The notes beneath the pieces are model-generated. The model made no database searches and was not told the DNA's origin. It saw only the letters and a list, made by a program, of their open reading frames with translations. Below are positions 5,754-43,310 of a stretch of 64,000 bases of DNA, one piece after another. Source of the DNA: an uncultured Gammaproteobacteria bacterium (GTDB lineage Bacteria; Patescibacteriota; Microgenomatia; Levybacterales; UBA12049); contig OZ246394.1 of NCBI GenBank assembly GCA_965230895.1, positions 1,121,887 through 1,185,886 on the forward strand. Direction: 5' to 3'. Numbering within the stretch: position 1 is the first letter of the stretch; every line of letters starts with the position of its first letter. The translations under genes were made by a program, and so were the position numbers.

Positions 5754-5820
5754 ATATTCAGTATAGCAAAATGTGATCTAGCACACAGAAAACTGCTGGG
5801 ATTTATGCTATAAATAATCA

Positions 5821-7544: not shown

Positions 7545-7549
7545 AGTAT

Positions 7550-7978
7550 TTAGTTTTTAAATTTATCTGCGTAAGTATGTTCTGCATCCGCAAAGATAAA
7601 TAATCGTGTCAACATTTTATCACGTAAACGGTTTTGTGGGAGCATACCTTTTACAGCATGTAACAAAACACCTTCTGGTTTGCGTGCTCGTAATTCCTTC
7701 AATGTTTCTTCTTTAAAACCACCTGGATATCCAGAATGTCGGTAATACATTTTTTGAACTTCTTTTTTTCCAGTTACTTTAATATCTTTAGCATTTGTAA
7801 CGACTACATAATCTCCGCAGTCAAGGTTACGAACAAAATATGCTTTTCCTTTACCCATTAAAAGTTGTGCAATTTCAGAAGCAACACGTCCAAGAGTTTG
7901 GTCTTTAACATCAACATGGTGCCATGCTCTTTTGATGTCTTTCGCCTTTGTTGGTTGTGTTTGTGCTGCTTGGTTCAT
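7550..7978 (-). CDS. rplM: 50S ribosomal protein L13
   Basis: WHHVDVKDQTLGRVASEIAQLLMGKGK... is the canonical L13 N-terminus. Confidence 0.93.
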   Translation of the reverse strand: MNQAAQTQPTKAKDIKRAWHHVDVKDQTLGRVASEIAQLLMGKGKAYFVRNLDCGDYVVVTNAKDIKVTGKKEVQKMYYRHSGYPGGFKEETLKELRARKPEGVLLHAVKGMLPQNRLRDKMLTRLFIFADAEHTYADKFKN

Positions 7979-7981
7979 AGT

Positions 7982-8512: not shown

Positions 8513-8652
8513 AGATAATAAAAAATCCGAAGCTCGAAATCCCAAATACGAAACAAAACCAATTTTTCAAAATACTAACTACAATCTTTAATTGTGGGCA
8601 TTTGTATTTTGAGCTTGTTTCGAATTTCGATATTCGAATTTCGGATTTACTC

Positions 8653-24094: not shown

Positions 24095-24403
24095 CTACAT
24101 CTTCAATTCTACGTCTACTCCGGCTGGTAATGCTAAATTCGTTAAACTATCTATTGTTTTGCCTGTTGGTGAAACTATGTCGATTAATCGCTTGTGAATT
24201 CGAATTTCGAAATGATCACGTGCATCTTTATCAATAAACGGTGATTTGTTTACTGCATAAACGCTACGATCAGTCGGAAGTGGAACAGGACCAATAACCT
24301 TAGCTCCTGTTCTAATAACAGAATCTAAGATCTGCTGACAACACGCATCTAAGACGCGAGCATCATAACTTTTTAATCGGACTCTAATTCTTCCTTTTTG
24401 CAT
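24095..24403 (-). CDS. rpsJ: 30S ribosomal protein S10
   Basis: MQKGRIRVRLKSYDARVLD... S10. Confidence 0.93.
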   Translation of the reverse strand: MQKGRIRVRLKSYDARVLDACCQQILDSVIRTGAKVIGPVPLPTDRSVYAVNKSPFIDKDARDHFEIRIHKRLIDIVSPTGKTIDSLTNLALPAGVDVELKM

Positions 24404-24440: not shown

Positions 24441-24463
24441 AAAAAAATCCCGCTTTCGCAGGA
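24441..24463 (-). terminator. Candidate intrinsic terminator immediately after tuf stop
   Basis: On the minus strand, AUCCUGC-gaaa-GCGGGAU (one G-U pair) is followed by UUUUUUU, starting right after the tuf TAA. Confidence 0.5.
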
Positions 24464-25642
24464 TTATTTTATTATTTTGGTGATCACACCAGCTCCAACG
24501 GTTCTTCCGCCTTCGCGAATCGCGTATCGGAGACCTTCTTCAAGAGCTACTGGAACAATAAGTTTAACTTTCATGTTTGTTGTGTCACCAGGCATAACCA
24601 TTTCTACACCATCTGGGAGAGTAACATTACCTGTAACGTCTGTTGTTCGGATATAGAATTGTGGTCGATATCCCTTAAAGAATGGTGTATGACGTCCACC
24701 TTCTTCTTTAGTCAAAACATAAGCTTCAGCTTCGAATTCAGTGTGAGGAGTGATACTCTTTGGTTTAGCAATAACTTGACCTCTTTCAACATCTTTCTTT
24801 TCAAGACCTCGGAGAAGAAGACCTACGTTATCTCCTGCTTGACCTTGATCAAGAATCTTCTTAAACATTTCTACACCTGTTACAACTGAATCTTTATTCT
24901 TATCAAGTCCTACGATTTCAACTGGTTCATTAACTTTAACAACTCCTCTTTCAATTCTTCCAGTTACAACCGTTCCTCGACCTTTAATTGAGAAAACATC
25001 TTCAACTGGCATCAAGAATGGCTTATCAAGATCACGAACTGGATCTGGAACGAAGTCATCAACTGCTTGCATGAGATCAAGGATCTTTTGTTCGTATTCA
25101 GCATTTCCTTCAAGTGCTTTCAAAGAAGAACCTCGGATGATTGGAGTGTCATCGCCAGGATATTGATACTTAGAGAGCAACTCTCGGATTTCCATTTCTA
25201 CAAGATCAAGAAGTTCTGGATCATCTACCATATCACACTTGTTAAGGTAAACAACAATTGCTGGAACACCAACTTGTCGTGCAAGAAGGATGTGTTCACG
25301 CGTTTGAGGCATTGGGCCATCTGGAGCAGAAACTACTAAGATTGCTCCGTCCATTTGAGCTGCACCAGTGATCATGTTTTTGATGTAATCAGCATGTCCT
25401 GGAGCATCAATGTGTGCATAGTGACGCTTATCTGTTTCGTATTCTTGGTGAGAGATATTGATTGTAACTCCTCTTTGTCGTTCTTCAGGAGCGTTATCAA
25501 TGTCAGCGTAAGATCGAGCTTGTGCAAAACCTTTTTTTGCAAGAACAGTGGTGATAGCCGCTGTTGTTGTCGTCTTACCATGGTCTACGTGACCAATAGT
25601 TCCGATATTTACGTGTGGTTTGTTTCGTTGAAATGTTGCCAT
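24464..25642 (-). CDS. tuf: Elongation factor Tu
   Basis: [21 protein letters not shown] motifs; 392 aa. Confidence 0.97.
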
Positions 25643-25852
25643 AGTGTTTTAAAAATAAAATCTCTCAATTCATTTATTGAGAGTAAATGTATGATACTAC
25701 AAAAAACGTGCCCCGTCAATAGGTTATTGTAAGAAAAACAGACTAAAACTCATGTATTTTGTTACTTTCCGTTGTTTTAGTATATTTATATTAAGGTATA
25801 TATAAGATATATATGCTTGACATTAGATTTTTTAAAGTGCAACAATAAAGAT

Positions 25853-28144
25853 ATGAATCCTGACCAAGGCACTACGTCACAAACACAACCTCTACCAGCA
25901 CATGATACTCTAAGTGCACAGTCAAGAAAACCATTGCCAAAGAAGTTTTTTATTATTGGGGGCCTTTTATTATTGCTCATCATTGCAATTGCATTGACAT
26001 TATTATTTGGGAAAAGTGAGAAAACTACCTCGAAAGATAATACTTCAGCGGTAGCTCCAACTTCAGGATTTGAAGAGATTAAAGAAACTGCGGAAAATTC
26101 ACCAACTGCAAAAGCTAGCTCGCATGTTGTAGTTTATGGATCATGGACAGGACAATCATCTTTAATAAAAGCAATTGATACAAATACCTCCAAAACTCAG
26201 TTAATCGCTACCCTTCCTATGGCAATTAAAAAAGTCGCTGTTCTTAACAACCAATCTCTCCTTTATATTGGGGACGTTGATAAAAAGGATCATGGGAAAA
26301 ACGTCACTATATACGATATAAAAGAGAAGAAGGTAGTTTCTACTATCTCAGCTTCTGAAGGGTACGGAATTGATGAATATACATTATCTCCAGATAAGAA
26401 GTATCTTGCGCTATGGGAGGTTCAATTTGCACAAGGATCAGAAATATTACAAGGTGGAAAGTCCAGAGTTTATACAGTTGCATTATCGAACCCAACAGTT
26501 AAGAATCTTATATATGATGAGCAAGCATTACAACCAATTCACTATCCACGAGCAATTCTTAATGATGGAACAGTATTTATGGATATGTTTATGCCAAATG
26601 ATCCACTTGGTGGAGCAGGATGGGCATACGGCATGAGTATGGCTTCGTTTGATGGGACAAATAAACGCGATATTGATTCATTAAAGTCAGGAACATATGG
26701 AAATCAGCCAGCATTATCACAGGAAGGTCGATATCTGCTCTTAACAGGATATGATGGAAAGTATGGAGATGGCACAGGCGTTAAGAATGGGATTCGCCAA
26801 GCAATCCTTACATCAAATACTGTTGATCTTGTTGATACAAAAACACTTCAGAGGTATAAATTACCAAATCTTTCAAACAATGATAGCTATGCATCTGCGC
26901 ATTGGGACTTTGTGACAGGCAAGATTATACTTTCAGTAGTAGGCGCAACAGCGGATAAAACAGGTCTTTATGCCTATGATATTGCATCAAAATCTCTTCA
27001 AAAGATTTCTGTTCCCTCGATAAATAACACTGAGTATATGCAAATCTCTAATCTACCAAATAACCAATTATTGATAGGCACATTTGAAGAAAATTCATCA
27101 AATCTTGGTAATTTAGGAGCAAATTATGAATATGCTTATACAAAACTAATGACATTGGATACTAAGACCTCTAAAAGCAAACCAATCTCTCTTGAAGATA
27201 CGTATGCACAATATATAACAGTACTTCCAGCTGATTATTTCAATAATGTCCTCGGGATCAAAACAATAGCCCAAGCAAATCCTCAGCCTACATTTGTAGA
27301 CCAGTATTCTGATCAAAATGCTACAAAAGAACGGTTGCAACTTTATACATTCTTCTTGAAATATGATTTGCAGCCTGTTCGCCTAAAGCAACAAAGCACG
27401 CCTGTTTCAACAACTCCAGTTAATTTATCAAAGATTACGCTGACGCCAAACACAACCTATCCACCACATAACGACGATAATATGCCAAAATGTAATGACG
27501 TTACAGCAAAAGTTTGTGCAGAAAAAGGTCAAGGTCCAGGAACAAAGGACTACACAATGTGTAAAGGTATGTACAAAGCACAAAATATGGAAAGAACGTG
27601 TGATGACTCTCCCCTTTACCTTTATGGTACACCTGGACAAAAAGTCCAAGTAACGATAAACACACCTGTTTATAACGCAATCCCATCCTATGATAGGGGA
27701 TACGAAATTACATTGATGCAACATGGGAAAATGCTTATCAATAATAACTCGTATGACAGAATTTCTTATGACTACTCATCAAATTTGAAAATAAGAAAAG
27801 CTCCAAAAGAGGGAAGTGTAACAACAAAGGAGAATTTGCCTTCCCTACTTAAAGATTATGCAAGAAAGCTTGGGCTCAATGATAAAGAGACTAAAGATTT
27901 AATCTCTGCTGGTTTACAGAAAGTCAAAACACCATACGCATTCGTCTCTTTCTATGATCATGAGACATCACATCGTATATTGCCAATCACATTCAATCCT
28001 CAGCCAGATAATTACTTAAATGTTGTATTCTATTTCAAGCAGCTCCAACAAAAGCCGAACCTAACCCCAGTCCCTCCTACATTCCCAGATCCGGTTAAAA
28101 GAGATGGATTTACTGCAATCGAAGTAAGTGAAGTTGTTGAGTGA
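25853..28144 (+). CDS. Membrane-anchored (N-terminal TM) extracytoplasmic protein, paralog A, with an extra Cys-containing C-terminal region
   Basis: The N-terminal polar tail is followed by a TM helix (FFIIGGLLLLLIIAIALTLLF) and then a domain of about 420 aa that is colinear and clearly homologous with the downstream gene. Shared blocks include YGSWTGQ, SPDKKY..WEVQF, LLGGKSR.Y, PTVKN..YDE, WAYGMS, FDGTNKRDI, GTYG.QPALS, LGNLG and QYITVLP. An SPDxKY-type motif suggests a TolB-like beta-propeller, which is a guess. The track start at 25817 is TTG. The ATG at 25853 (MNPDQG) matches the MDPAQP start of the paralog. Confidence 0.6.
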   Translation: MNPDQGTTSQTQPLPAHDTLSAQSRKPLPKKFFIIGGLLLLLIIAIALTLLFGKSEKTTSKDNTSAVAPTSGFEEIKETAENSPTAKASSHVVVYGSWTGQSSLIKAIDTNTSKTQLIATLPMAIKKVAVLNNQSLLYIGDVDKKDHGKNVTIYDIKEKKVVSTISASEGYGIDEYTLSPDKKYLALWEVQFAQGSEILQGGKSRVYTVALSNPTVKNLIYDEQALQPIHYPRAILNDGTVFMDMFMPNDPLGGAGWAYGMSMASFDGTNKRDIDSLKSGTYGNQPALSQEGRYLLLTGYDGKYGDGTGVKNGIRQAILTSNTVDLVDTKTLQRYKLPNLSNNDSYASAHWDFVTGKIILSVVGATADKTGLYAYDIASKSLQKISVPSINNTEYMQISNLPNNQLLIGTFEENSSNLGNLGANYEYAYTKLMTLDTKTSKSKPISLEDTYAQYITVLPADYFNNVLGIKTIAQANPQPTFVDQYSDQNATKERLQLYTFFLKYDLQPVRLKQQSTPVSTTPVNLSKITLTPNTTYPPHNDDNMPKCNDVTAKVCAEKGQGPGTKDYTMCKGMYKAQNMERTCDDSPLYLYGTPGQKVQVTINTPVYNAIPSYDRGYEITLMQHGKMLINNNSYDRISYDYSSNLKIRKAPKEGSVTTKENLPSLLKDYARKLGLNDKETKDLISAGLQKVKTPYAFVSFYDHETSHRILPITFNPQPDNYLNVVFYFKQLQQKPNLTPVPPTFPDPVKRDGFTAIEVSEVVE

Positions 28145-28186
28145 TCGAGCTTGACAAACTCTCCGCAATATTGACAAAATAGCTCT

Positions 28187-29635
28187 ATGGATCCTGCCCA
28201 ACCAAATCCCAATCAACCATTACAGCAGCCACAACAACCGCCACAGTCAGAGCAAGCTGCTACGCCCGTTGCACCAACACAGCCACCAGCACCTGACGCA
28301 ACAAAGCCTTTCCCAAAAAAACTCGCGCTAATAGCAGGCGGAGGTGCGCTCATTCTTCTCATTATTATTGCAGTTATATTTGGCCTGAGTGGAAGAAAAT
28401 CTTCTAACGGAACTGTAATGCCCACTCCAACGAAAGCTCAATCTGGGGGAGAAGTTAAAGCAACGCCTGTAACAAGAGATCCTGATGATCCACAAAAGAT
28501 GATGATCTATGGAACATGGACAGGGCAAACAACTGTAGTCCGGGGAGTTGATATTGGCAGCTCCGAGAGTCTTAATATTGCTACGCTTCCACTTGAGGTA
28601 AAGAAGATTTCAGTTCTCTCCTCGCAGAACCTGATGTACATAGATCAAGTTGACACAAAAGAGTTAGGACGTAGGATAACTATTTATAATCTTAAGACCA
28701 AAACTTCAAGTCAAAGCATTCCGGCCTCTTCAGGATATGGGATAGAAGATTATGCTTTATCTCCGGATAAAAAGTATATTACTATTTGGGAAGTCCAATT
28801 TGGATCGACAACACAATCTCTTCTAGGTGGAAAATCAAGAATCTATGCAATTGATTTATCAAGACCTACAGTAAAAAACATTCTTTATGATGAAACAGTA
28901 AGTACAACTATTCCGATACACTACCCAATAGGTATTTTGAATAATGGTACTGTCTTCGCAGATACTCTTATTCCGAGTGGCACAAATGGCAGTAAAGATT
29001 GGGCATATGGTATGAGTGTTGTTGACTTTGACGGTACAAATAAGCGAGATATTGAATCGATGAAGAAAGGAACCTATGGAACCCAACCAGCACTTTCCCC
29101 TGACGGCAAATACCTCCTATTTGCAGGATATGATGGATCAAAAGGTAACGATCCTGCAGGGAGACAAGCAATAATGACACCAAACACGATTGATGTTCTC
29201 AATACTGAATCACTTAAACGATTCACACTACCAAACCTTTCAAGTACAAATACCTATCCAACGGTTTCATGGGAATCTCAAACAGGAAGAATCTTTTTTG
29301 CTCAATTTTCGCTCGATACTCAGAAAACAAATTCATTCTCATATGATCTGGGCAAGCAAAAACCAACTGAGATCGTTATTCCAATTGAAGGCGATTCGAG
29401 ATATGGATATGTAGAACAACTAAATGATGCAAAAGCACTTATCGGAGCACAAGATCTCGATCCATCTAACCTAGGCAACTTAGGAAATGCTCCTGCTTAT
29501 GCCTACACACAACTAGCACTTTTAGACGTGCAGACTTCAAAAGTTAACTTTGTCTCAGTACAGGATGCATTTGTACAGTATATAACTGTATTACCTACCA
29601 CCTACTTTAAATCCACACTTGGTGAGGCTCAATAG
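28187..29635 (+). CDS. Membrane-anchored extracytoplasmic protein, paralog B (482 aa)
   Basis: The Pro/Gln-rich N-terminal tail is followed by a TM helix (LALIAGGGALILLIIIAVIFGL), then a domain homologous to paralog A. Confidence 0.6.
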   Translation: MDPAQPNPNQPLQQPQQPPQSEQAATPVAPTQPPAPDATKPFPKKLALIAGGGALILLIIIAVIFGLSGRKSSNGTVMPTPTKAQSGGEVKATPVTRDPDDPQKMMIYGTWTGQTTVVRGVDIGSSESLNIATLPLEVKKISVLSSQNLMYIDQVDTKELGRRITIYNLKTKTSSQSIPASSGYGIEDYALSPDKKYITIWEVQFGSTTQSLLGGKSRIYAIDLSRPTVKNILYDETVSTTIPIHYPIGILNNGTVFADTLIPSGTNGSKDWAYGMSVVDFDGTNKRDIESMKKGTYGTQPALSPDGKYLLFAGYDGSKGNDPAGRQAIMTPNTIDVLNTESLKRFTLPNLSSTNTYPTVSWESQTGRIFFAQFSLDTQKTNSFSYDLGKQKPTEIVIPIEGDSRYGYVEQLNDAKALIGAQDLDPSNLGNLGNAPAYAYTQLALLDVQTSKVNFVSVQDAFVQYITVLPTTYFKSTLGEAQ

Positions 29636-29651
29636 GGGAGACTGGCCATTT

Positions 29652-30731
29652 TTAAAAATAGGAATATGCCCAAAAGGAGAAACTTGTAATACCTCTTGTA
29701 CGTAAGTATTGTTGTTTTTGCCGTACAGAAGTCATATCTTCAAACCAAACAACATGCTTTTGCCCTTCACTATCTGTATAAGTAACTCTTGTTTCTGCAG
29801 ACAAAGCATCACGTTTAATAGCACATGACGTATAGTCGCAATCGTCAAGAAACTTCTGCTCAATTTCTTTATAAGTTAACGGTGAGCCTTGTGAAATAGC
29901 TTTTCCATTATTATCAACTTCCCAATCATAGCCAAACATACCAAAAATGATAGTAACATTCTTTGGAGAAGTGTACTGAAGAATATCATCTGCTAGTTCA
30001 GTCATATCATAACCATACGTTTCTTTACCTTGCATAGGAAAGTTTGGTCCCGGATTTGAGCGTGACTTATGGAAATCATACGCCATTAGCATAAAAGTGT
30101 TGTTCGCCTCAGAAAGTGATTTCACATCAAAAGGCCTTAGTCGATAAAACGTATCACCATATAAAGCCATAGTAAACTCCAATTTTGCCTCCTTCGTTTT
30201 TGTTGCAAAGTTATTTGAGAAGGTACTGATTTGATCTACAAGAGAGTCAAAAGGGATAGCACTCATTTCTAAATCGAGAACAATTCCTGAAAAACCGTTT
30301 TGTTTAGCATATGATACAGATTGATCTATTATTCGTGCCTGGGCGTTTTTATCTTTTAATATATTTGCGTTTACTTCCGAATCAACCATGCGTAGAACCA
30401 GAAGCGTTTTTTTACCTTGAGGCACATTTTCCCTAAAAGCATCTATTCGTGCATATCCTTCTTCTTCTGAAATTCCTTTCGCATTTGGTGTTATCCCGAA
30501 ATATAAATATTGGTCGTAGCCATTAAATGTCTCATCTCCAATTGCCCAATAAGGAACAAAAACAGAATTTACTGTTTTTTGATTTGGATCAATAGCAATT
30601 GAAGGAGTAGGAGAGAGCACTGTTTCTAAAATAGGTTGGGATAGATCTTTTCCTATTTTTGCTTTTGCGGCCTGAATAATAACGAAGACTAAGGCAAAGA
30701 GTAAAACAACTACAAGGATAAAACGCTTCAT
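29652..30731 (-). CDS. Secreted/anchored glycoside-hydrolase-family-18-like protein (putative)
   Basis: N-terminal hydrophobic signal. GFSGIVLDLEMS resembles the GH18 D-x-x-D-x-D-x-E catalytic block (G-F-D-G-I-D-I-D-W-E) but does not retain all acidic positions, so it may be inactive or divergent. Confidence 0.4.
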   Translation of the reverse strand: MKRFILVVVLLFALVFVIIQAAKAKIGKDLSQPILETVLSPTPSIAIDPNQKTVNSVFVPYWAIGDETFNGYDQYLYFGITPNAKGISEEEGYARIDAFRENVPQGKKTLLVLRMVDSEVNANILKDKNAQARIIDQSVSYAKQNGFSGIVLDLEMSAIPFDSLVDQISTFSNNFATKTKEAKLEFTMALYGDTFYRLRPFDVKSLSEANNTFMLMAYDFHKSRSNPGPNFPMQGKETYGYDMTELADDILQYTSPKNVTIIFGMFGYDWEVDNNGKAISQGSPLTYKEIEQKFLDDCDYTSCAIKRDALSAETRVTYTDSEGQKHVVWFEDMTSVRQKQQYLRTRGITSFSFWAYSYF

Positions 30732-30786
30732 ATATGTATTATACCTCACTCTTCCAGAAACTCTTTTTTTACTCTATACTTAAGCT

Positions 30787-31227
30787 ATGGAAAAAGAAAA
30801 AAAGGCGATAATCTTCAATATCGTACTAGCTCTCGCAACAGTATTCCTTCTTATCACAGGGCCTTTATATGTCGTAGAAAATCTTACTTTCGTAATGGTC
30901 CAAGTATTTGGTATTTTACTTATTCTTTGGGCGCTTCTATCCAGAAACATGAATCGGACGCATACACATAAGCTTCCTCCTGGATATTTCTGGGTTTCAA
31001 AAGGTCCATATGAGATTATCCGTCATCCAATTTATGCAGGCTTCTTACTGATTCTGTCGAGCATGGTACAGTATAATTTTGAGATTATTCGTATCACATT
31101 ATTCCTTCTAATAATCGCTATCATATTTCTAAAAATTATTAGAGAAGAGGATACGATGCAAAAAGAGATAACTGAGTATGGTGAGTATATGCTGAAAACA
31201 AAACGGATTATTCCATATTTGTTTTAG
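30787..31227 (+). CDS. Isoprenylcysteine carboxyl methyltransferase / phospholipid methyltransferase family membrane protein
   Basis: Multi-TM, with the family motif VSKGPYEIIRHPIYAGFLL. Confidence 0.65.
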   Translation: MEKEKKAIIFNIVLALATVFLLITGPLYVVENLTFVMVQVFGILLILWALLSRNMNRTHTHKLPPGYFWVSKGPYEIIRHPIYAGFLLILSSMVQYNFEIIRITLFLLIIAIIFLKIIREEDTMQKEITEYGEYMLKTKRIIPYLF

Positions 31228-31894
31228 GAAGATCTTCTCGTTTTAAGATAATAAAATATTCTTCTTTTCTTCTTTTTCTAAAAGCTCCAAGAATATTATC
31301 GATATCATGTTTTTGCGACTCATGCTTTGTCATTGCAGAAACTTTTTGCTCCCAAACAGGCTCAATATCAACGACTTTGGAAATATCGCTGTCTTTATAC
31401 CCTGGAGGGAAATAGATAAAATATGGCTTCTGAAAAGAACGTGCATATTCTGACATACAGTAATACCAAAGTTCAGAAACCGTTGAAACTTTTTCAAACA
31501 CAAAACTTGTAATCATGGATACAGCAATATGATCTATATGCCCTGATACCCCTCGTGGCTCATATGTTATAAGCATCTCTGGATCAAGTGATTCAATTTG
31601 CTGTTGTACTTTATCAGCTATTTCATGATATAGATTGTTTGAGAGTGTGCCATCGTGATAATCAAGAAAAAATACTTCTTTAACACCGATTGCAGTTGCA
31701 GACGCTTTCAGTTCGCCTCTGCGAATTTCTCCAAGGTTTACCCCGCTTGAATTCTCGAGGCTATTCATACCTGCGTCCCCATTTGTTACACAAATGATAT
31801 AAACATCTCGCTCTTTTGCCATCATGGCCATAGTCCCTCCTGGACCAAATACTTCATCATCTGGATGCGCAAATACTGCTACTACTGACTTCAT
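31208..31894 (-). CDS. PIG-L/LmbE family N-acetylglucosaminyl deacetylase
   Basis: AVFAHPDDEVFGPGGT motif and HxDH (SGHIDHIAV). The start is placed at the ATG at 31894, just before the motif (the track ORF extends to 32071). Confidence 0.7.
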   Translation of the reverse strand: MKSVVAVFAHPDDEVFGPGGTMAMMAKERDVYIICVTNGDAGMNSLENSSGVNLGEIRRGELKASATAIGVKEVFFLDYHDGTLSNNLYHEIADKVQQQIESLDPEMLITYEPRGVSGHIDHIAVSMITSFVFEKVSTVSELWYYCMSEYARSFQKPYFIYFPPGYKDSDISKVVDIEPVWEQKVSAMTKHESQKHDIDNILGAFRKRRKEEYFIILKREDLPKTNME

Positions 31895-32525
31895 ATATTC
31901 TATTATAGCAAGCTTTTTAAAATATGCGGTAGGGGATGCAAATTTTACATTTTTCAGTACGCTCAAATTGAAAGCTATTTTCCTTTTTACTTTAATGCGA
32001 GTTTTTTGCATCCGGCGGGGGAGCCAAAAATCGTTTTTGGCAGGGGAGTCGCATATCATTATTTTTTCCATAATAATTTGTTTAGAAACTGTTTTATAAA
32101 TGATTTAACACTAAGAATTCTCAGGAAAGTTTTCAACATAAGATTTTAAAGTTATCCACAAAAAGACTTTCGTATCTTTTTGTTATTGGCAGTAGGCATT
32201 TCATTGTGAGAATAAACACCTATAATACGCAGAACATACTGATCGAACTATATCATCCGTGGCTAATTCTAGAGTTTAAGTCCCTATAATAAGCATTCGT
32301 ATTTTTTGCATTATATCGTGAAAAGTACCGTTGTGAAAAGATGATGATATAGTTGTATATGGTAATACTATGGGACTTAGATGATGCAGTTTGCACTACT
32401 CTCTTCCCTGTCTTTGTGGCTAAGTATATAATTCGTAGGACAAAAAATTATTTAAAATACAGAATACACTTGGAAAAATCAAAATTATGAAAGATATTAC
32501 AGATTAACTTCAGGCGTTTAAAGGA

Positions 32526-34667
32526 TTATTGCTCTATTCTACCTGTGAAAGTAGATTTAGCGAGGAGCTGGTCGATAATGTTCTTTGGAACATATTCATA
32601 ATGACTTGGTTCCATATAGAAACTTGCACGTCCCTTCGTCAATGAACGGAGTTGTGTTGCATATCCTGAAAGTTCTGAAAGTGGAACTTGCGCCAAAATA
32701 ATTGTCGCATTCCCCCGCTCTTCTGATCCACCGATTTGAGCCCGCTTTGATGAAAGATCACCCATAACTTCTCCCATGTATTCACTTGGAAGTGTTACTT
32801 CAACTTTCATGATCGGTTCAAGGAGTGTAATCCCCGCCTTCTTTGAAGCAGCTTGAATTGCTTGAGATGCAGCAATCTTAAACGCAACTTCGGAAGAGTC
32901 AACATCGTGGTATGAACCGTCATAGCAAGTTACTTTAACGTCGATAAGTGGATATCCTAAGAGCACACCATTATCCAAAGTTTCTTTAACACCCTTTTCT
33001 ACAGCCTTAATAAATTCTGCAGGAATAGCTCCTCCTTTGATCGCATTAACGAATTCATAGCCTTCACCTCGAGGTTTTGGTTCAAGTCGAAGCCAGCAAT
33101 GACCATATTGACCTCGTCCTCCGGACTGCTTAATGTATTTACCTTCAGCTTCTGCAATTTGTGAAATAGCTTCTTTATATGCAACTTGTGGAGCACCGAC
33201 GTTTGCCTCGACGTTAAATTCTCTCTTCATACGATCAACCATGATTTCAAGTTGGAGTTCTCCAATACCTGAGATAATAGTTTGGCCTGTTTCATGGTTT
33301 GTCTTAACTGTAAATGTAGGATCTTCTTCTTGAAGTCTCTTCATTGAATACCCAAGCTTTTCTTGATCTGATTTAGTCTTTGGTTCAATAGCAAGTGAGA
33401 TAACTGGTTCTGGGAATGTAATTTGCTCAAGAATAATTGGCTTATCTTCATCGCAGAGAGTATCTCCAGTAATGGTATCTTTCAATCCTACAATAGCTAC
33501 GATTTCTCCAGCATATGCCTCTTTTATTTCTTCACGGTCATTCGCATGCATCATGAGAAGACGACCAATACGTTCTTTAACACCTTTGTTTGCATTGTAA
33601 ACGTATGATCCTGCAGAAAGTTTTCCTGAGTACACACGGAAGTATGCAAGTTTTCCAACGTGAGGATCATTTTGGATTTTGAACGCCAATCCTGAGAAAG
33701 CTTCTTCAGGAATAAGTCTTCGGTTTTCTTCAGCATTTGTTTTTGGATTGATCCCTCGAACATCAGACAAATCTTGTGGTGATGGAAGGTAATCTACGAC
33801 TGCGTCAAGAAGTGGTTGAACACCTTTATTTCGAAGAGATGTGCCCGCGTACATAGGAACCAATTTGTATGCAATAACAGCTGCTCGAAGTGCTTTTCGA
33901 AGTTCTTCGACAGATGGTTCTTCTCCACCGAGATACTTTTCAAGAAGAGCATCATCAGTTTCTGCAATCTTTTCGATAAGCTTATTTCGATATTCTTCAA
34001 CTTGATCTTTCATGTCTTCAGGAACTTCATCCTTTACTTCATACTTTGCACCAAGTTCATCTGAACCCCAGATGTATGATTGTCGTGTCAAAAGATCAAC
34101 ATTACCTTGATATGTATTTTCAGCTCCAATTGGGAGAACCATAATTGCTGGATTTGCACCAAGTCGATCTTCAACACTTTTGACAGTATTAAGGAAGTCT
34201 GCACCAAGCTTATCCATCTTGTTAACGAAACAAAGTCGTGGAACTTTGTATTTGTCAGCTTGTCGCCATACAGTTTCAGATTGTGACTGTACACCTTCTT
34301 CAGCGTCAAGAACGGTAATACCACCATCAAGTACACGAAGTGAACGTTCTACTTCAGCTGTAAAGTCGACGTGCCCTGGAGTGTCAATAATGTTGAATCG
34401 AGTATCAAGTCCTACAAACATACCTGTTCTTGGAGTCCAGAATGCTGTGGTCGCTGCTGATACGATAGTAATACCGCGCTCTTTCTCTTGTTCCATCCAG
34501 TCCATCTGAGTATTACCTTCATCAATGTCACCAATCTTGTATGTACGCCCTGTGTAGAAAAGAATACGTTCTGTTGTAGTAGTTTTTCCTGCATCAATAT
34601 GCGCAATAATTCCGATATTTCGGATGCGGTCTAAAGGATAAATACGTGATTTTGGATCTGCTGCCAT
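32526..34667 (-). CDS. fusA: Elongation factor G
   Basis: [20 protein letters not shown] and the domain IV/V blocks; 713 aa. Confidence 0.97.
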
Positions 34668-34768
34668 AGTTTTAACAAAAAATCATCCCGATTCTCGGGA
34701 CTGAAAGAGTATAGCATATACTTTGAGAGAAAAAAAGAGACTTTTGCCTAAACTGATATAATTCTAGA

Positions 34769-35506
34769 ATGACTGAAGCATTGAAAAGACAACCGTACAC
34801 TCTTGATGCGTTTGAACAAATGACTGTGGACAATTTTCGACGAGCTGAAGGAGAGATCACAGATTGGAAGCTTTATTATGCAGAAAGGTTGACTGACGAA
34901 ACCAAAGAATTTGGATTCCAACACGGACCTGGTTTATTGCTGTTGTCACCCGCTTATATGGTACCTGACTACGCTGTAGAAGATGAATCACTCCAGGAAG
35001 GTATGGCTGATGAACTTGGTGATAAGCTCTACTTCGCCGCTCATTTAGCTCGGCATATAGGTATTCCTTTGAAACGTATTGCAGCAAATGCACTAGGCAA
35101 ACATACTGATACACAATATACAGGCATAGAAACATTTTCAGACCTTCAAACAACAGTTATGGCAAACGCTCATAAAATTTCTATTCCCAATGAGCTTAGT
35201 TATGGAATGTTAAGCTTTATAAATGACGATCAGCCTCATATCGATGCACCCTTTACGAAAACAACTTTACAGGACAACCCACTTTTTGTCTTGATGCGGT
35301 TTACAAATAGACTTGTGGATTCTCTTGACCCGAGCACAAGAGATAGAGCGGCTGTTGAACCGACAGTAGATACCACAACTGCATTAGGTGATTATGTAAA
35401 TGCACTCACATATGTAGCCAAAGCCCGTCTTGGGAAAAATATTGAAGATATTGCACTTGCCACAAAAGCAAAATCTGAACACCGAAAGAAATACGGCAAA
35501 GTGTAA
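34769..35506 (+). CDS. MazG-like nucleoside triphosphate pyrophosphohydrolase domain protein (putative)
   Basis: ADELGDKLYFAAHLARHIGIPL resembles the MazG EExGDLLF..V.LAR..G motif; otherwise uncharacterised. Confidence 0.4.
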   Translation: MTEALKRQPYTLDAFEQMTVDNFRRAEGEITDWKLYYAERLTDETKEFGFQHGPGLLLLSPAYMVPDYAVEDESLQEGMADELGDKLYFAAHLARHIGIPLKRIAANALGKHTDTQYTGIETFSDLQTTVMANAHKISIPNELSYGMLSFINDDQPHIDAPFTKTTLQDNPLFVLMRFTNRLVDSLDPSTRDRAAVEPTVDTTTALGDYVNALTYVAKARLGKNIEDIALATKAKSEHRKKYGKV

Positions 35507-35595: not shown

Positions 35596-36210
35596 GTGGC
35601 TATGGCTGAAAATACTGTCCCATCAATCAATTTGCTACCAAAGAAAGGTGAAAGCTTTTTAAACCAGTTTCTTAATTGGACACTGACAATTGGAAGACTT
35701 CTCATCATCATAGTTGAGTTCGTGGCATTAGGCACTTTTCTCTTTAGATTTGATCTTGATATGAAAATCGTTGATCTTAAAGACAAGATTGAAGCGCAAA
35801 GCTTTATTGTCGCTAACTTTCAAAAATCTGAGGCAAATTTCCGGGACATCCAAGACCGTTTGGAACTTATAAAGCGGTATGAACAGATTGGTGGAACAAC
35901 ATCAGGTATTTTTGCAGATATTACAAAGTTAGGAGCAGGAAAAGTCACATTCAAAGATCTTACTGTCGAACCTGAAAACGCAAAAATTGAAGCACAAGCA
36001 GGTTCCCCTGCTGCACTTATGGCTTTTGTGGCAGCATTAAAGCAGCACCCATCAGTAACAGGTGTCATTGTGGATAAAGTGCAAAACAGCGCTTCAACAT
36101 CCCTTGTCAGTGTAAGTATTACAGCAACGCTTAAGCCACAAGCTTTTGAAAAAGATGAATCATTAAATCCAAATGCGGGACAAGTGGCACCAATATTAGA
36201 GACTGAGTAA
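35596..36210 (+). CDS. PilN-like type IV pilus assembly protein
   Basis: N-terminal INLLP motif, then a single TM, then a periplasmic-type domain; about 200 aa. Confidence 0.55.
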   Translation: MAMAENTVPSINLLPKKGESFLNQFLNWTLTIGRLLIIIVEFVALGTFLFRFDLDMKIVDLKDKIEAQSFIVANFQKSEANFRDIQDRLELIKRYEQIGGTTSGIFADITKLGAGKVTFKDLTVEPENAKIEAQAGSPAALMAFVAALKQHPSVTGVIVDKVQNSASTSLVSVSITATLKPQAFEKDESLNPNAGQVAPILETE

Positions 36211-36212
36211 TT

Positions 36213-36833
36213 ATGAGACTGCCTAAAAGTTATTTTGAAAGTTTATCTGCGACAAAATATCGCGAATATTTAAAGCTTCTTCCAAATATGGAGAAGGAGC
36301 ATACACGTGCATTTGTAACAATTGCTTTGACATTTGCAGCGCTTTCATTCTTTGGTATTTTTGCAATTAATCCAACCTTAACAACGATTGCAGAACTACA
36401 AAAAGAATTAGAAGATAACCAAATGGTAGATCAACAATTATCAGCAAAAATAAATAATTTGAGTCTTCTGCAGCAGCAATACAACTTATTAGAATCTGAT
36501 CTTCCTGTGGTTTATGCAGCGATTCCAAAAACAGCAGATGCTCCACTTCTCAGTGCACAAATAGAGGCACTTGCTAGAAAACATAACGTTACGATTGAAA
36601 CCTACAGAATTGCAGAAGTACAACTCGCCTCAAATAAGCAAAAACTTACGAAAACCACTTCGTTTACCTTTACGCTTGAAGCAACTGGAACATATCAGAA
36701 CATGATTAATTTCTCGACAGCGCTTGCAGGTCTTAATAGAATAGTTACTGTAGAATCCATGAGTATAAGTAGAGATAGTAAAACAAATGAACTTATGCTT
36801 ACATTACGAGGCAGACAATATTTCAAACCATAA
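36213..36833 (+). CDS. PilO-like type IV pilus assembly protein
   Basis: TM helix plus coiled coil plus a C-terminal alpha/beta region; about 200 aa, translationally coupled to the PilN-like gene. Confidence 0.45.
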   Translation: MRLPKSYFESLSATKYREYLKLLPNMEKEHTRAFVTIALTFAALSFFGIFAINPTLTTIAELQKELEDNQMVDQQLSAKINNLSLLQQQYNLLESDLPVVYAAIPKTADAPLLSAQIEALARKHNVTIETYRIAEVQLASNKQKLTKTTSFTFTLEATGTYQNMINFSTALAGLNRIVTVESMSISRDSKTNELMLTLRGRQYFKP

Positions 36834-39945: not shown

Positions 39946-41613
39946 ATGCATCTGATCCTTAAGAATAAATATACGTATTTCGTTTCTATACTCACTATTT
40001 TAGGCTTTTTTCTCCATTTTTATAATCTTAATTGGGGTGCTCCATATTATTTTCATCCTGATGAAAGAAATGTCGCAAGTGCAATATCGCAACTTCGATT
40101 CCCCGAACAATTAAATCCTAATTTTTTTGCATACGGTTCGTTTCCTATTTATGTTGTTTTCTTCACGGGGCTTCTTTTTAATACAATTACAAATAATCCA
40201 CTCCATGGGCAAATTCCTTTTGATCAAGCGATCATTATCGGGAGGATGTATTCTGCGATTTTCGCAACAGCGCTTATACCATTGCTTTATATTTTGGGTA
40301 CAAAACTTCATGATAAACGGACTGGCGTAATTGCGGCAACATTTACCACATTAAGTACAGGATTTATCCAATTTGCACATTTCGGAACATTTGAGCTTTG
40401 GCTTACATTCTTTACTACCGTTCTCTTCTGGTTATGTCTAAAACTTTTAGAAAGAAAAACCATCAGGTACGTACTTCTTATTGGATTAGTTTGTGGGATA
40501 CTTGTTGCAACAAAAATTTCGCATCTTACTATTCTTCCGTTGCCACTTTTAGCATTAATAGCACTCCATATTAAAGGAAAGGGCAAGCATCATCACAAAT
40601 TCACTCGGCTATTGTTCTTTGTCCAAGAACTTGCACTTTTAGGAATTACTACTTTACTCATTTATTTTGCAACCAATCCATATGTGCTACTTGATTTCAA
40701 TGCCTTTTTTGCAAGCATGAACTATGAATCAAGTGTTGGATTAAATACGCTTCCTGTATTTTATACTCAAGGATTTTACGAGACGATACCTGTCTTTTAT
40801 CAATTTCTTAATATTTATCCATTCCTCCTTAACCCGATTATGACTATTCTTTTTGTCTTTACTTTTATATTCATCCTTGTCTGGGCAATTCGTTACAAAA
40901 ATTTACAGTATCTTTTGCTGCTGGGATTTTTCATTATTCTTTTTGTTTCTCAATCTTTTCTTTTTATTAAATGGGCTCGGTATATGATACCAACACTCCC
41001 CTTTCTCTATCTCATTATTGCCTTAACACTTTCGCATGTGCTTTTCAGGAAATCGTATGTTGCAAATGTCGCGAAGCATAGTCTAATGCGCGTAATAGTT
41101 ATTTCAATTTTTATTGTTAACACAATTTTTTCTCTTTCTTATTTTGTGACAGCCTTCGTCCAACCGGATACAAGAATCTCAGCTGCCACTTTTTCACGTC
41201 AGGCAATCCCCGCTACTGCAGCTGTTTTGACTGAAACATATGATATTGGAATAACACCTTTCAATAGTATCTTTACAAAGATAGTTATTTTTAACACCTA
41301 TGATCTTGATAGTGACTCACTTGAATATAACGAGACAACTTTGAATGAAATTGCAAAAAATTCAGATTATATAATCATCCCAAGTCAACGCGTACTGCAA
41401 ACACGTATCAATAACCCACAGCGTTACCCTATTGGCAATAAATTTTATAGTTCGTTAATGCATGGCAAATTCGGATATACCAAGGTTTATGAGACACCAT
41501 GTGACACAATCTGTAAAATTGCCTACTTAGGGGATCCTATCTATCACTTTGAACAGACGATTAATGTCTTTGACCGTCCAACTGTATTTATTTTCAAGAA
41601 TAATACTAAATAA
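39946..41613 (+). CDS. GT-C fold glycosyltransferase (family 39/83-like, polyprenyl-phosphate-sugar dependent), paralog 1
   Basis: More than 10 TM segments. An N-terminal loop carries the FHPDERNV motif (a DE in the first loop is typical of PMT/ArnT-like GT-C enzymes). It is homologous to the next gene. Confidence 0.6.
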   Translation: MHLILKNKYTYFVSILTILGFFLHFYNLNWGAPYYFHPDERNVASAISQLRFPEQLNPNFFAYGSFPIYVVFFTGLLFNTITNNPLHGQIPFDQAIIIGRMYSAIFATALIPLLYILGTKLHDKRTGVIAATFTTLSTGFIQFAHFGTFELWLTFFTTVLFWLCLKLLERKTIRYVLLIGLVCGILVATKISHLTILPLPLLALIALHIKGKGKHHHKFTRLLFFVQELALLGITTLLIYFATNPYVLLDFNAFFASMNYESSVGLNTLPVFYTQGFYETIPVFYQFLNIYPFLLNPIMTILFVFTFIFILVWAIRYKNLQYLLLLGFFIILFVSQSFLFIKWARYMIPTLPFLYLIIALTLSHVLFRKSYVANVAKHSLMRVIVISIFIVNTIFSLSYFVTAFVQPDTRISAATFSRQAIPATAAVLTETYDIGITPFNSIFTKIVIFNTYDLDSDSLEYNETTLNEIAKNSDYIIIPSQRVLQTRINNPQRYPIGNKFYSSLMHGKFGYTKVYETPCDTICKIAYLGDPIYHFEQTINVFDRPTVFIFKNNTK

Positions 41614-41615
41614 AA

Positions 41616-43310
41616 ATGTACAATAAACATATGTTGAAACAAAACTTACTTGCAAAAATTATCCTTCTTGGGATCGTACTCTTAGGTGGATTTTTGAGAT
41701 TTTATGATTTTGACTGGGATCAAGGACAACATCTCCATCCAGATGAAAGATTCTTAACAATGGTCGGGACCTCTATGATTATGCCAATTTCGTTTGCAGA
41801 TTATATGAATCCCGATACCTCGACGTTCAATCCCGCAAATATTGGTCATTCATTTTATGTTTATGGGACATTGCCAGTTGTCCTCACTAAGCTTATCGCA
41901 ATAAATCTAGGCTATGACAATTATGGGGATATCACGATTCTTGGACGATTATTTTCGGGCTTCGTAGATATACTGACAATTATTGTTATATATAAAATTA
42001 CTTCTTTACTTCAAAAACGGCATAAACTCCATCCGCATATCAAATATTGGGCTTCCTTTTTCTATGCCATTACTGTTTTACCGATACAACTCTCTCATTA
42101 TTTTGCAGTGGATACATTCCTCAATTTCTTTATGATAACTGCATTTTATCTTATGTTGCGTTTTAGTTATACAAAAAACCTAGCATTTGTAGCAGTAAGC
42201 GCAATTTTCTTTGGACTGGCTATTGGTTCAAAAATAAGTGCAATTTATATAGCGCCCCTGTTAGCATTCTTCTTAGTTAAAACATATATTCCCCATTTCC
42301 CAGTCCATAAAAAAGCTATTATCCACATCCTCTTATCTGGTTTCATTTTCAGTTTTACTGCATATTTAATTGGAAGATTAGCAGATCCTTACCTTTTTCA
42401 AACCGGAAATATTTTTGATCCGACAATAAGCAAACTCTTTCTTGATAACATCGATGCTTTAAAAAATTGGGGAAGCGCTGATGCATGGTTTCCACCAAGT
42501 GTCCAATGGATAAATAAAATACCAATTGTGTATCCACTGATAAATCTTGTACTTCTTGGCATAGGTGTTGGATATACGATTTTTCTTATCTGGGGTGCTA
42601 TCCAATTATTCAGGAGATATACTCATATTGATTTTATAGCAATTTTTTCTTGGACCCTATTCTTTTTTCTTTATCAAGGATTACAGTTTTCAACTACAAT
42701 GCGTTACTTCTTGCCACTCTATCCATTCTTAGCGTTGCTTGCTGCAATCGGTTTTTATGAACTTACGAAACATCGATCCAATGTCATTAGATTTATGTGC
42801 ATCATTTCTGTTGTACTTTGGACAATGTTTTTCTTTTCAATATATACTCTGCCACATACACGAAATACCGCAAGTATATGGATTTACGATCATATTCCAA
42901 ATGGACGTACACTGCTCAGTGAACATTGGGATGATAGCCTACCACTAGGTACAAATCCTCCATCACAAAAAACATATACACTTGAACAGCTTCCTGTATT
43001 TGATCCAGATACATCAGAAAAGTGGCAAAAAATGGATGAACTATTGGACAGGGGTGACTATCTAATACTCTCTTCAAATCGTGGTTGGGGCAGTATACCA
43101 ACAGTACCTGACAGATATCCTCAAACAACAAAGTACTACAAAGATTTATTAGGAGGAAATTCAAAGTATAAAAAAGTTGCAGAGTTTACATCCTATCCGT
43201 CACTTAACTATCTGGGTATTCCAATAAGTATTCCCGATGATTGGGCGGAGGAAGCTTTTACTGTCTATGATCATCCTAAAGTTATGATCTTTGAGAATAC
43301 AGAAAAATAA
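41616..43310 (+). CDS. GT-C fold glycosyltransferase, paralog 2
   Basis: LHPDERFLTMVG motif in the first loop, and the same multi-TM architecture. Confidence 0.6.
   Translation: MYNKHMLKQNLLAKIILLGIVLLGGFLRFYDFDWDQGQHLHPDERFLTMVGTSMIMPISFADYMNPDTSTFNPANIGHSFYVYGTLPVVLTKLIAINLGYDNYGDITILGRLFSGFVDILTIIVIYKITSLLQKRHKLHPHIKYWASFFYAITVLPIQLSHYFAVDTFLNFFMITAFYLMLRFSYTKNLAFVAVSAIFFGLAIGSKISAIYIAPLLAFFLVKTYIPHFPVHKKAIIHILLSGFIFSFTAYLIGRLADPYLFQTGNIFDPTISKLFLDNIDALKNWGSADAWFPPSVQWINKIPIVYPLINLVLLGIGVGYTIFLIWGAIQLFRRYTHIDFIAIFSWTLFFFLYQGLQFSTTMRYFLPLYPFLALLAAIGFYELTKHRSNVIRFMCIISVVLWTMFFFSIYTLPHTRNTASIWIYDHIPNGRTLLSEHWDDSLPLGTNPPSQKTYTLEQLPVFDPDTSEKWQKMDELLDRGDYLILSSNRGWGSIPTVPDRYPQTTKYYKDLLGGNSKYKKVAEFTSYPSLNYLGIPISIPDDWAEEAFTVYDHPKVMIFENTEK

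Follow-up and report, generated by a model that had tools for sequence, protein, structure and literature searches.

In E. coli, Bacillus and most other bacteria, the rpsL, rpsG, fusA and tuf genes form the canonical str operon. Here we describe a 64-kb stretch of the contig OZ246394.1 (hereafter, the window) in which two junctions of this operon, rpsG|fusA and fusA|tuf, are interrupted. The four genes do not form a contiguous, co-directional array: the genes for the elongation factors EF-G (fusA) and EF-Tu (tuf) are separated by a 6,883-bp interval (25643-32525; hereafter, the slot) that holds five genes on both strands, and rpsL-rpsG is missing from the 29 kb of the contig that lie upstream of fusA. 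An examination of the same DNA by a model without database searches (hereafter, the sequence-only reading) had already placed fusA about 6.9 kb away from tuf and the intact S10 operon, had noted that rpsL-rpsG was not upstream of fusA, and had attributed this organization to the insertion of an accessory segment. The organization itself was confirmed by profile matches and by a tblastn search with the E. coli S12 and S7 proteins, which produced no match in the whole 64 kb (E ≤ 1e-3). The interpretation changes: comparison with related genomes makes it highly probable that the fusA-tuf split is an old, vertically inherited, lineage-level gene order with a fixed core of slot genes, rather than a genomic island. 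The main components of the locus are the following:

24095-24403, minus strand: rpsJ (S10), which opens the intact S10 operon that runs on to rplQ-rplM-rpsI at 7062-8545
24446-24465, minus strand: terminator-like hairpin with a T-run (consensus scan), GC-rich, overlapping the tuf stop codon, 42 nt before rpsJ
24464-25642, minus strand: tuf (EF-Tu; TIGR00485, 734 bits against a cut-off of 522; Pfam GTP_EFTU, D2 and D3 domains), the first gene of the tuf-S10-spc-alpha block
25817-28144, plus strand: ins1, an open reading frame (ORF) that opens at TTG 25817, with the likely start at ATG 25853; predicted membrane-anchored beta-propeller protein of 763 amino acids
28187-29635, plus strand: ins2, tandem paralog of ins1; 482 amino acids, with a predicted transmembrane helix at residues 44-66 and a beta-propeller at residues 104-470
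29652-30731, minus strand (ORF to GTG 30749): GH18 glycosidase of 359 amino acids with an N-terminal signal-anchor helix (PF00704, 2e-19, 70.7 bits against 29.6)
30787-31227, plus strand: ICMT/PEMT-family membrane methyltransferase of 146 amino acids with an RHPIY motif (PF04140, 3e-7, 31.2 bits against a gathering score of 24)
31208-31894, minus strand (ORF to 32071): PIG-L/LmbE-family deacetylase, 228 amino acids counted from M60 (PF02585, 1.5e-30, 106.7 bits against 28.2)
31895-32525, no strand assigned: AT-rich spacer of about 630 bp on the 3' side of fusA, with no recognizable gene or RNA
32526-34667, minus strand: fusA, canonical EF-G (TIGR00484, 1060 bits against a cut-off of 659)

The EF-G of the window is 77-82% identical to the EF-G proteins of related species in which fusA is still located downstream of rpsL-rpsG. 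Pfam matches downstream of tuf include S10, L3, L4, L23, L2, S19, L22, S3, L16, L29, SecY, RpoA, L17, L13 and S9, and the hairpin at the tuf stop codon could serve, between tuf and the S10 operon, as a partial terminator or an attenuator. The five intervening genes, none of them involved in translation, are those recognized in the sequence-only reading, that is, two paralogs (now identified as propeller proteins), GH18, ICMT-like and PIG-L. The spacer showed no blastn, blastx or tblastx homology to relatives beyond the extension of the PIG-L ORF, and its fusA-proximal 146 nt (32380-32525) fold no better than shuffled sequences (z = +0.4); there was no Rfam match at the gathering score in the whole window and none at E ≤ 1 between 24 and 36 kb. 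The best match to the sigma-70 consensus in the region, TTCACA-16-TATAAT at 32337-32310 on the minus strand, lies in this spacer, with no obvious gene behind it.

A search for EF-G in one genome per GTDB species returned, as the best matches to the window protein, metagenome-assembled genomes (MAGs) of Candidatus Levybacteria, which belong to Patescibacteria, or the Candidate Phyla Radiation (CPR). A metagenome scan with an alignment of the GH18 protein contributed 13 additional loci that show fusA, GH18 and tuf. These comparison loci from related genomes and metagenome contigs (denoted L003, L084 and so on) were binned by the identity of their EF-G to that of the window, and a junction was considered expanded when the gap exceeded 500 bp. 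Several of the Levybacteria/Microgenomates-like MAGs (L003, L006, L010, L012-L016 and others, all GTDB representatives) carry titles such as “uncultured Gammaproteobacteria,” “Pseudomonadales” or “Limnocylindrales” at NCBI; judging by EF-G and gene order, these records are probably mislabelled.

With both genes in view, the fusA|tuf junction is expanded in all 20 loci where EF-G is at least 77% identical to that of the window (0.7-10.8 kb, median 5.7 kb), compared to 6 of 18 loci at 60-76% identity and 2 of 39 below 60% (mostly Bacilli). Expansion at the neighboring junctions was distributed as follows:

rpsG|fusA: 8 of 8 Levybacteria loci (EF-G identity of at least 77%); 1 of 46 loci with EF-G below 60%
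tuf|rpsJ: 1 of 19 Levybacteria loci; 15 of 30 loci with EF-G below 60%
rpsJ|rplC: 2 of 18 Levybacteria loci; 0 of 29 loci with EF-G below 60%

Thus, the two junctions that flank fusA are expanded and variable in Levybacteria (20/20 and 8/8, against 1/19 and 2/18 for the next two). To this extent, the insertion or rearrangement hotspot posited in the sequence-only reading holds up, although not as a discrete or recent insertion. In the closest GTDB species (L003-L007, EF-G identity 80-84%), a pilus-type cluster replaces rpsL-rpsG upstream of fusA, the fusA|tuf gap is 2.4-7.9 kb, and an ortholog of GH18 is present in the slot in all five loci, next to tuf except in L006; PIG-L is found in L004-L006. 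Farther out (L008-L011, EF-G identity 77-81%), rpsL-rpsG is retained upstream, at 0.6-4 kb from fusA, and 0.7-7.6 kb separate fusA from tuf. More distant Microgenomates (L013, L017, L019, L020, L022, L024-L026, L029 and others) mostly possess a tight canonical operon.

The closest relatives of the window are L084, L086 and L125, in which EF-G is 92% identical to that of the window and GH18 only about 51%. All three show the order fusA, zero to two ORFs, PIG-L, ICMT (opposite strand), GH18 and a single propeller gene (opposite strand), followed by tuf in L084 and L125; the L086 record ends before tuf. The same core order is kept in L006, L089 and L091. The proposal of a recent accessory insertion does not survive this comparison; because the order recurs and GH18 stays in the slot, the alternative that the sequence-only reading itself had named, a fixed ancestral synteny, largely describes the core. 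Wherever a GH18 homolog with at least 42% identity was found with fusA or tuf in view, it lay between or beside them, whereas homologs with identity of 40% or less and full 10-kb flanks are located elsewhere. Furthermore, the pairwise identities of GH18 and EF-G co-vary across 20 loci (Mantel r 0.69, a value reached in none of the 5000 permutations), which fits vertical co-inheritance.

GH18 is also present in the slot of species that retain rpsL-rpsG upstream (L009, L103, L110, L118 and L166), suggesting that its entry predates the separation of fusA from rpsG. Three contexts with rpsL-rpsG upstream show the arrangement rpoB-rpoC-rpsL-rpsG, then 1.7-8.7 kb, a cyclophilin gene on the opposite strand and fusA, and in both records that extend past fusA, slot genes follow. 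The cyclophilin-type peptidyl-prolyl isomerase gene, directly upstream of fusA in these rpsL-rpsG-keeping Levybacteria (L166, 11359-12027; L167, 18302-18967; L168, 11913-12641), is itself a conserved feature; the variable 1.7-8.7-kb insertions fall between this gene and rpsG.

Beyond the core, the content of the slot varies from species to species without a common theme, as do the sizes of the gaps and the extra genes between the core genes. The following additional genes were identified in the slots of relatives:

L003: ATP-citrate-lyase-like genes, MurB, a NUDIX protein
L004 and L006: glyoxalase
L005: CDP-alcohol phosphatidyltransferase, a PHP protein, diacylglycerol kinase, a CarS-like protein and a protein with the AP-endonuclease-2 fold, three of which are also found in L007
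L009: an S-adenosylmethionine-dependent methyltransferase
L010: arginine decarboxylase, an EamA transporter, an LPG-synthase domain protein, and a histidine kinase with a response regulator
L011: an epimerase, Maf, an MFS transporter

Accordingly, the envelope or surface functions assigned to the slot in the sequence-only reading are plausible for the genes of the window, among which GH18, both propeller genes and ICMT encode membrane-anchored or integral proteins, but do not extend to other species, where the slot holds unrelated housekeeping genes. The propeller gene is duplicated only in the window and in L006, the closest relatives having a single copy. Hotspot and fixed synteny thus both hold, at different depths: a conserved core coexists with continuing turnover at the junctions. 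As a separate observation, the ATP-citrate-lyase-like pair (Citrate_bind/ATP-grasp and CoA-ligase/citrate-synthase domains) occurs downstream of fusA in three loci (L003, 12143-15220; L012, 10241-13249; L168, 18902-20474); in L003, where tuf is visible, it falls inside the fusA-tuf slot. Levybacteria are thought to have minimal central metabolism, so that this pair is unexpected.

The signs by which genomic islands are usually recognized, that is, mobility genes, repeats or tRNA genes, odd composition and patchy presence, do not characterize the slot. Scans against Pfam, NCBIfam and PHROGs detected no integrase, transposase or other mobility gene among the slot genes, and none was detected among about 30 slot proteins of relatives that were scanned. 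The window contains no tRNA gene, and a search for flanking direct repeats yielded only short matches at the chance level, apart from the stretch coding for the P-loop, in which tuf and fusA are homologous; the failure to spot repeats or integrase remnants by eye in the sequence-only reading is therefore borne out by dedicated searches. The GC content of the slot genes (0.35-0.41), that at third codon positions (GC3, 0.25-0.34) and the synonymous-codon distance (0.05-0.11) are all within the range of the window. Patchy distribution among relatives is limited to the propeller duplication and to a MazG-like gene located upstream of fusA.

On that side of fusA, the window contains:

34769-35506, plus strand: MazG-like gene (tandem all-alpha nucleoside triphosphate pyrophosphohydrolase; family-level assignment), 245 amino acids, divergent from fusA
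35596-36833, plus strand: PilN-like and PilO genes (PilO, PF04350, 6e-14; PilN below threshold), the start of a pilus/glycosylation cluster
39946-41613 and 41616-43310, plus strand: tandem PMT_2-type glycosyltransferase paralogs, about 25% identical to each other

The MazG assignment made in the sequence-only reading stands for the family but not for the individual protein, which on its own scores below the Pfam threshold (E 0.05-0.12, 13.5 bits against 22). Among the remote homologs, 34 of 47 match Pfam MazG (best 6e-8), the family profile matches the PDB structures of E. coli MazG (3cra) and of YpjD (2gta) with E between 1e-3 and 3e-3, and the acidic motif residues E44, E47, E82 and D85 are invariant; a single-sequence structure model was unusable (predicted local distance difference test score, pLDDT, of 37). 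In the 12 relatives that lack the gene at this position, only 117-607 bp, devoid of other genes, lie between fusA and the start of the PilN-like gene. When the MazG-like protein was searched against 5.8 billion proteins with a word index, only the protein itself was retrieved, and a full HMMER scan retrieved 67 other cluster representatives, all at most 44% identical, so that at this position the gene appears to be a recent acquisition private to this species. Beyond the PilN-like and PilO genes, the cluster includes an Ig/fn3 protein, an amine-oxidase-type flavoprotein and the two PMT_2 paralogs. The PMT_2 pair is kept, together with the PilN/PilO cluster and the flavin amine-oxidase gene, upstream of fusA where rpsL-rpsG is missing from that place, and the order of the cluster is conserved in L003-L007, L086, L089, L093, L102, L104, L117 and L125. 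At the opposite end of the window, downstream of rpsI, there are two large ORFs on the minus strand, 3-3026 (more than 1008 amino acids, running off the window) and 3555-5753 (732 amino acids), neither of which matches Pfam; their GC content is 0.45 and 0.43, respectively, against about 0.38.

Examination of the upstream regions points to a separate promoter for each of the genes in and around the slot:

25662-25683, minus strand: hairpin of the tuf 5' leader, 8 bp, followed by a U-rich tract and an ATG without a Shine-Dalgarno sequence
25691-25719, minus strand: tuf promoter-like site, TTGACG-17-TATCAT (scan)
25817-25846, plus strand: ins1 promoter-like site, TTGACA-18-AACAAT (-10 at 25841-25846), ending 6 nt before ATG 25853; leaderless type
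28151-28180, plus strand: ins2 promoter-like site, TTGACA-18-CAAAAT (-10 at 28175-28180), ending 6 nt before the ATG; leaderless type
30738-30743, minus strand: GH18 -10 box TATAAT, 6 nt before the ATG; leaderless type
30775-30780, plus strand: ICMT -10 box TATACT, its own
31902-31907, minus strand: PIG-L -10 box TATAAT, its own
34708-34718, minus strand: extended -10 TATGCTATACT of the fusA promoter-like element, with a hairpin at 34685-34701 followed by a U-run (hairpin and U-run identified by eye)
34757-34762, plus strand: -10 hexamer of the MazG-like gene; leaderless type

The element upstream of tuf, TTGACG-17-(TG)TATCAT, is common to more than 20 Levybacteria loci in which the intergenic DNA is otherwise unalignable; a search for the strict extended -10 pattern found no match in the window because the tuf promoter of the window lacks the TG. 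The tuf leader hairpins start 5-10 nt after the -10 box and have stems of 6-10 bp that differ in sequence between species; a hairpin was seen in all 20 leaders folded, as the minimum-free-energy fold in 18, with a mean z of -1.8 relative to shuffled sequences. In the MAFFT alignment of the leaders, the stems are out of register and RNAalifold predicts no pairs, so the hairpin rests on the folds of individual sequences. L013, in which only 105 bp separate fusA from tuf, already has the tuf promoter and the hairpin; Microgenomates outside the group carry a Shine-Dalgarno sequence before tuf and no such promoter. The fusA box, TATGsTATACT, aligns in all 14 loci with the pilus cluster and recurs in most Levybacteria loci with rpsL-rpsG upstream, and neither the box nor the hairpin is present in loci where fusA lies within about 70 bp of rpsG (L019 and L026). 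The scan tool labels both the tuf and the fusA leader hairpins as “terminator-like,” and no Rfam family matches either of them. Besides the window, the loci with these promoter and leader elements fall in the ranges L003-L013 and L084-L125. The conservation of these promoter-like elements argues against dependence of fusA and tuf on the rpsL promoter.

A -10 hexamer ends 6-7 nt ahead of the ATG in all five slot genes and also in the MazG-like gene, and each slot gene is therefore probably expressed as a separate leaderless transcript; in 19 of 21 orthologous loci, GH18 has kept its gTATAAT box at a distance of 6-8 nt upstream of the ATG. The pattern is not confined to the slot: across the window, 16 of 56 genes have a -10-like hexamer whose end lies 6-12 nt ahead of the start codon (for example, at 5760-5770 on the minus strand), with a pile-up at -7 to -12 and with 6 genes having a hexamer that ends at -7, against 0.34 expected. 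The genes within the ribosomal operons carry Shine-Dalgarno-like sequences instead. This distribution suggests that leaderless or near-leaderless mRNAs are widespread in the window. To our knowledge, the gene-expression signals of this uncultured lineage are essentially unstudied, and a search of the literature on leaderless genes in CPR bacteria found nothing directly relevant.

The protein sequences provide some clues to the function of the slot genes. The two propeller proteins are 47% identical over about 380 amino acids, with ins1 carrying an additional C-terminal region of about 300 amino acids without a recognizable domain. There was no Pfam match for ins1, and the PD40 repeat reaches 19.2 bits in the propeller proteins, just under the threshold of 20.9. 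The AlphaFold2 model of ins2, built with 81 homologs (pLDDT 86.9), consists of a disordered N-terminal tail, one transmembrane helix and an all-beta region (residues 104-470), for which Foldseek retrieves many propellers at TM scores of about 0.4-0.5 (oligogalacturonate lyase at 7e-12, TolB, amine dehydrogenases), none of them favored. From this model and the identity between the two proteins, ins1 and ins2 are predicted to be generic beta-propellers that cannot be assigned to a specific family. The ins family consists of 86 members, all named “hypothetical,” and the few with an organism given come mostly from Levybacteria; homologs of ins1 occupy the same slot in L006, L084, L086, L088, L091, L099 and L125.

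The GH18 protein retains the catalytic D-x-E pair (D159 and E161 in the numbering of the 365-amino-acid ORF, “..GIVLDLE..”), which is invariant in 7 orthologs, and the first two Asp residues of the full DxxDxDxE motif are replaced; its closest relative in the PDB is B. subtilis YdhD (3cz8, 6e-12). Judging by the domain and the D-x-E pair, it belongs to the GH18 family, without a substrate assignment. The methyltransferase matches the isoprenylcysteine methyltransferase equivalog NF040696 (5e-11) with 42.7 bits, and because this score is far under the cut-off of 160, its substrate cannot be assigned; orthologs occupy the same position and orientation in L083-L086, L089-L091, L125 and L126. The PIG-L protein contains the zinc motifs AHPDDE and HxDH (HIDH). 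Its orthologs have 217-222 amino acids, and the annotated ORF of 283/287 amino acids probably over-extends into the spacer. The best PDB relatives of PIG-L are archaeal diacetylchitobiose deacetylases (2e-14), and, scoring below the cut-offs of the equivalog models for BshB, MshB and Mca (bacillithiol and mycothiol enzymes), it was not assigned to any of these. Because three of the four gene types (GH18, the propeller proteins and ICMT) encode membrane-anchored or integral proteins, we infer a role of the module in the envelope or in the metabolism of N-acetylglucosamine (GlcNAc) polymers, with GH18 acting outside the cytoplasm and the chitobiose-deacetylase-like PIG-L inside. A literature search on GH18 proteins or chitinases of Levybacteria found nothing directly relevant.

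Taken together, these observations can be accommodated in a simple scenario. The ancestor of the Levybacteria group would have had a collinear rpoB-rpoC-rpsL-rpsG-fusA-tuf-S10 array, and ordinary, non-mobile chromosomal genes would have invaded both junctions flanking fusA in place. GH18 was apparently the first to enter fusA|tuf; PIG-L, ICMT and a membrane-anchored propeller gene would have joined it, and the resulting four-gene core would then have been inherited vertically. In the sub-lineage of the window, a larger rearrangement presumably cut between rpsG and the fusA promoter and placed the pilus/glycosylation cluster beside fusA. Finally, in this species, the propeller gene was probably duplicated in tandem, yielding ins1 and ins2, and the MazG-like gene inserted between the PilN-like gene and fusA. 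Under this scenario, fusA and tuf no longer rely on the rpsL promoter, each having its own promoter, after which come a 5' hairpin and a U-rich leader that lacks a Shine-Dalgarno sequence, and tuf would drive, or at least head, the S10 block. The region would thus consist of a series of independent units: fusA, then five genes that are probably leaderless and monocistronic, and tuf at the head of the S10 block. The dedicated promoters of fusA and tuf would explain why the split is tolerated and why insertions at these junctions are harmless.

The vertical scenario has to be weighed against several others. A recently acquired island, that is, a 6.9-kb mobile element inserted into an intact fusA-tuf junction, might be suspected from the presence of genes on both strands, from their non-translation functions, and from two components that do appear recent, namely, the MazG-like gene, which is found just outside the slot in this species only, and the propeller duplication, found here and in L006. 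This explanation is extremely unlikely given the lack of an integrase, transposase, tRNA gene or flanking repeats, the ordinary GC, GC3 and codon usage, the same order of the four core genes in relatives whose orthologs are only 40-60% identical, and the co-divergence of GH18 with EF-G. Alternatively, fusA could have been translocated away from tuf, or the window could contain a second, relocated copy, as the unlinking of rpsL-rpsG from fusA and the different cluster abutting fusA would allow. Relatives with rpoBC-rpsL-rpsG upstream, however, retain collinearity from these genes through fusA, GH18 and tuf to S10, each of the two junctions having a gap, and the protein scores as canonical EF-G, not EF-G2; because these relatives are collinear, in-place expansion with a single break upstream of fusA is the simpler history, and relocation appears highly unlikely. 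The source of the sequence being a metagenome assembly, a chimera between fusA and tuf, produced by assembly or binning, also has to be considered, but the probability of such an error is practically negligible. Independent Logan assemblies from three runs share an identical stretch from fusA to the propeller genes, so that it is not an assembly artefact; one 30.7-kb Logan contig runs on into an ORF located where tuf lies, the slot proteins are also listed on a 1.6-Mb NCBI contig, and many further MAGs and metagenome contigs show the arrangement.

A different kind of alternative is that the placement of the genes is selected, the expression of an envelope module being coupled to growth rate by a position between the two translation-factor genes with the highest expression, for example, through read-through from fusA into PIG-L or through a divergent control region shared by tuf and ins1. 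Several observations are compatible with such coupling: among the Levybacteria loci sampled, GH18 has kept to the slot wherever its identity is 42% or more; PIG-L has the same orientation as fusA and, in L004 and L086, begins no more than about 33-40 bp downstream of it; the window has no terminator-like site after fusA, and the tuf and ins1 promoters lie back to back within 174 bp. Conversely, every slot gene is preceded by a conserved -10 box of its own, the slots of other species are filled with unrelated housekeeping genes, the core genes differ considerably in their spacing and in the additional genes between them, and in the window, a spacer of about 630 bp separates fusA from PIG-L. On balance, we regard selected placement as unlikely.

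Several findings weigh against the vertical scenario or parts of it. Within the group, the neighbor-joining tree of EF-G and EF-Tu has poor resolution, and the order of events is therefore deduced from the parsimony of shared neighbors. L013 groups with Levybacteria, yet its fusA and tuf are adjacent (105 bp), possibly as a result of reversal or because of misplacement. The site of rpsL-rpsG in this genome was not located: among the 120 S7 matches listed, none is on the 1.6-Mb contig with the proteins of the window, the three S7 contexts retrieved all come from relatives with rpsL-rpsG upstream of fusA, and an exact sequence look-up yielded short Logan contigs only. A generic scan of the region for promoters and terminators finds no more sites than in shuffled sequence, so that the argument from promoters rests on cross-species conservation. 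Finally, PIG-L is absent from the slot in several GH18-bearing species, and GH18 homologs outside the slot are not beside PIG-L, which weakens the functional pairing of the two.

In a more speculative vein, the hairpin and U-tract leaders of tuf and fusA might be a lineage-specific cis-regulatory device that replaced the operon-level coupling of EF-G and EF-Tu and enabled the break-up of the str operon, with the GH18, PIG-L, ICMT and propeller module serving growth-coupled scavenging or remodelling of GlcNAc polymers, in connection with an episymbiotic lifestyle. Such a device could be a promoter-proximal attenuator or else a stabilizer or translation enhancer for mRNAs without a Shine-Dalgarno sequence. 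We give this combined proposal only a slight chance of being correct.

The split itself, then, is real but fairly ordinary. Its practical implication is that Levybacteria do not possess the textbook str operon as a unit, so that annotation or binning checks based on contiguity would flag normal genomes as odd. The dedicated promoters of fusA and tuf, present even where both genes are still adjacent, suggest themselves as a permissive condition for the split. Arguably, the by-products of the analysis, that is, the apparently widespread leaderless-type promoters and the conserved hairpin/U-tract leaders on both elongation-factor genes, might be more useful than the split.

Among known gene arrangements, the canonical str operon provides the obvious reference. 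The window shares with it orthologous fusA and tuf genes in the same order and orientation, with rpsJ directly after tuf, and the tight form is kept in the related Microgenomates L019, L026 and L029; the difference is that in the window the four genes are not contiguous, and fusA and tuf have their own promoter-like elements. Separation of the two elongation-factor genes is normal in several phyla: in Bacteroidota and Campylobacterota, for example, tuf is naturally unlinked from fusA and associated with tRNA genes, secE and nusG. These cases resemble the window in that co-transcription of fusA and tuf is dispensable, but the tuf gene of the window still heads the S10 operon and is located a few kilobases from fusA, in the original order. 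With regard to the slot content, the closest parallel is the archaeal chitin pathway, which combines a chitinase and the deacetylase Dac in Thermococcus and Pyrococcus (3wl4, 3we7, 8bgn). The PIG-L protein of the window is nearest to these deacetylases and is encoded close to a GH18 with an intact DxE pair; nevertheless, the identity is low and the activity is predicted from sequence, GH18 is closest to the sporulation glycosylase YdhD, no glucosaminidase or transporter partner is visible, and PIG-L is missing from the slot in several GH18 species.

The closest precedent for the split has been described by Brandis and colleagues, who showed that, in Gammaproteobacteria and Bacilli, multigene insertions of non-mobile genes at junctions of the translation supercluster precede larger rearrangements; such insertions account for most of the events traced, and it is by relaxing selection that they open the way to larger rearrangements (PMC6735719, PMC8046335). 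The features that define this pattern (PMC6735719, PMC8046335) were all found here: insertion at a junction, ordinary cargo, a retained downstream promoter and later disconnection in sub-lineages. In the window, the insertions lie at junctions of transcription units, contain no mobility genes and leave the downstream unit with its own promoter-like element, and a small insertion is followed by complete disconnection in a sub-lineage, here, that of rpsL-rpsG from fusA. There are also differences: the lineage belongs to Patescibacteria/CPR, the affected junctions are internal to the E. coli str operon (rpsG|fusA and fusA|tuf) rather than between str and S10, and the expansion is universal in the sampled Levybacteria, with a conserved four-gene core. 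By analogy, the Levybacteria pattern appears to be the same process in another phylum, which would extend the invasion of translation-supercluster junctions by non-mobile genes, known in Proteobacteria and Bacilli, to the CPR.

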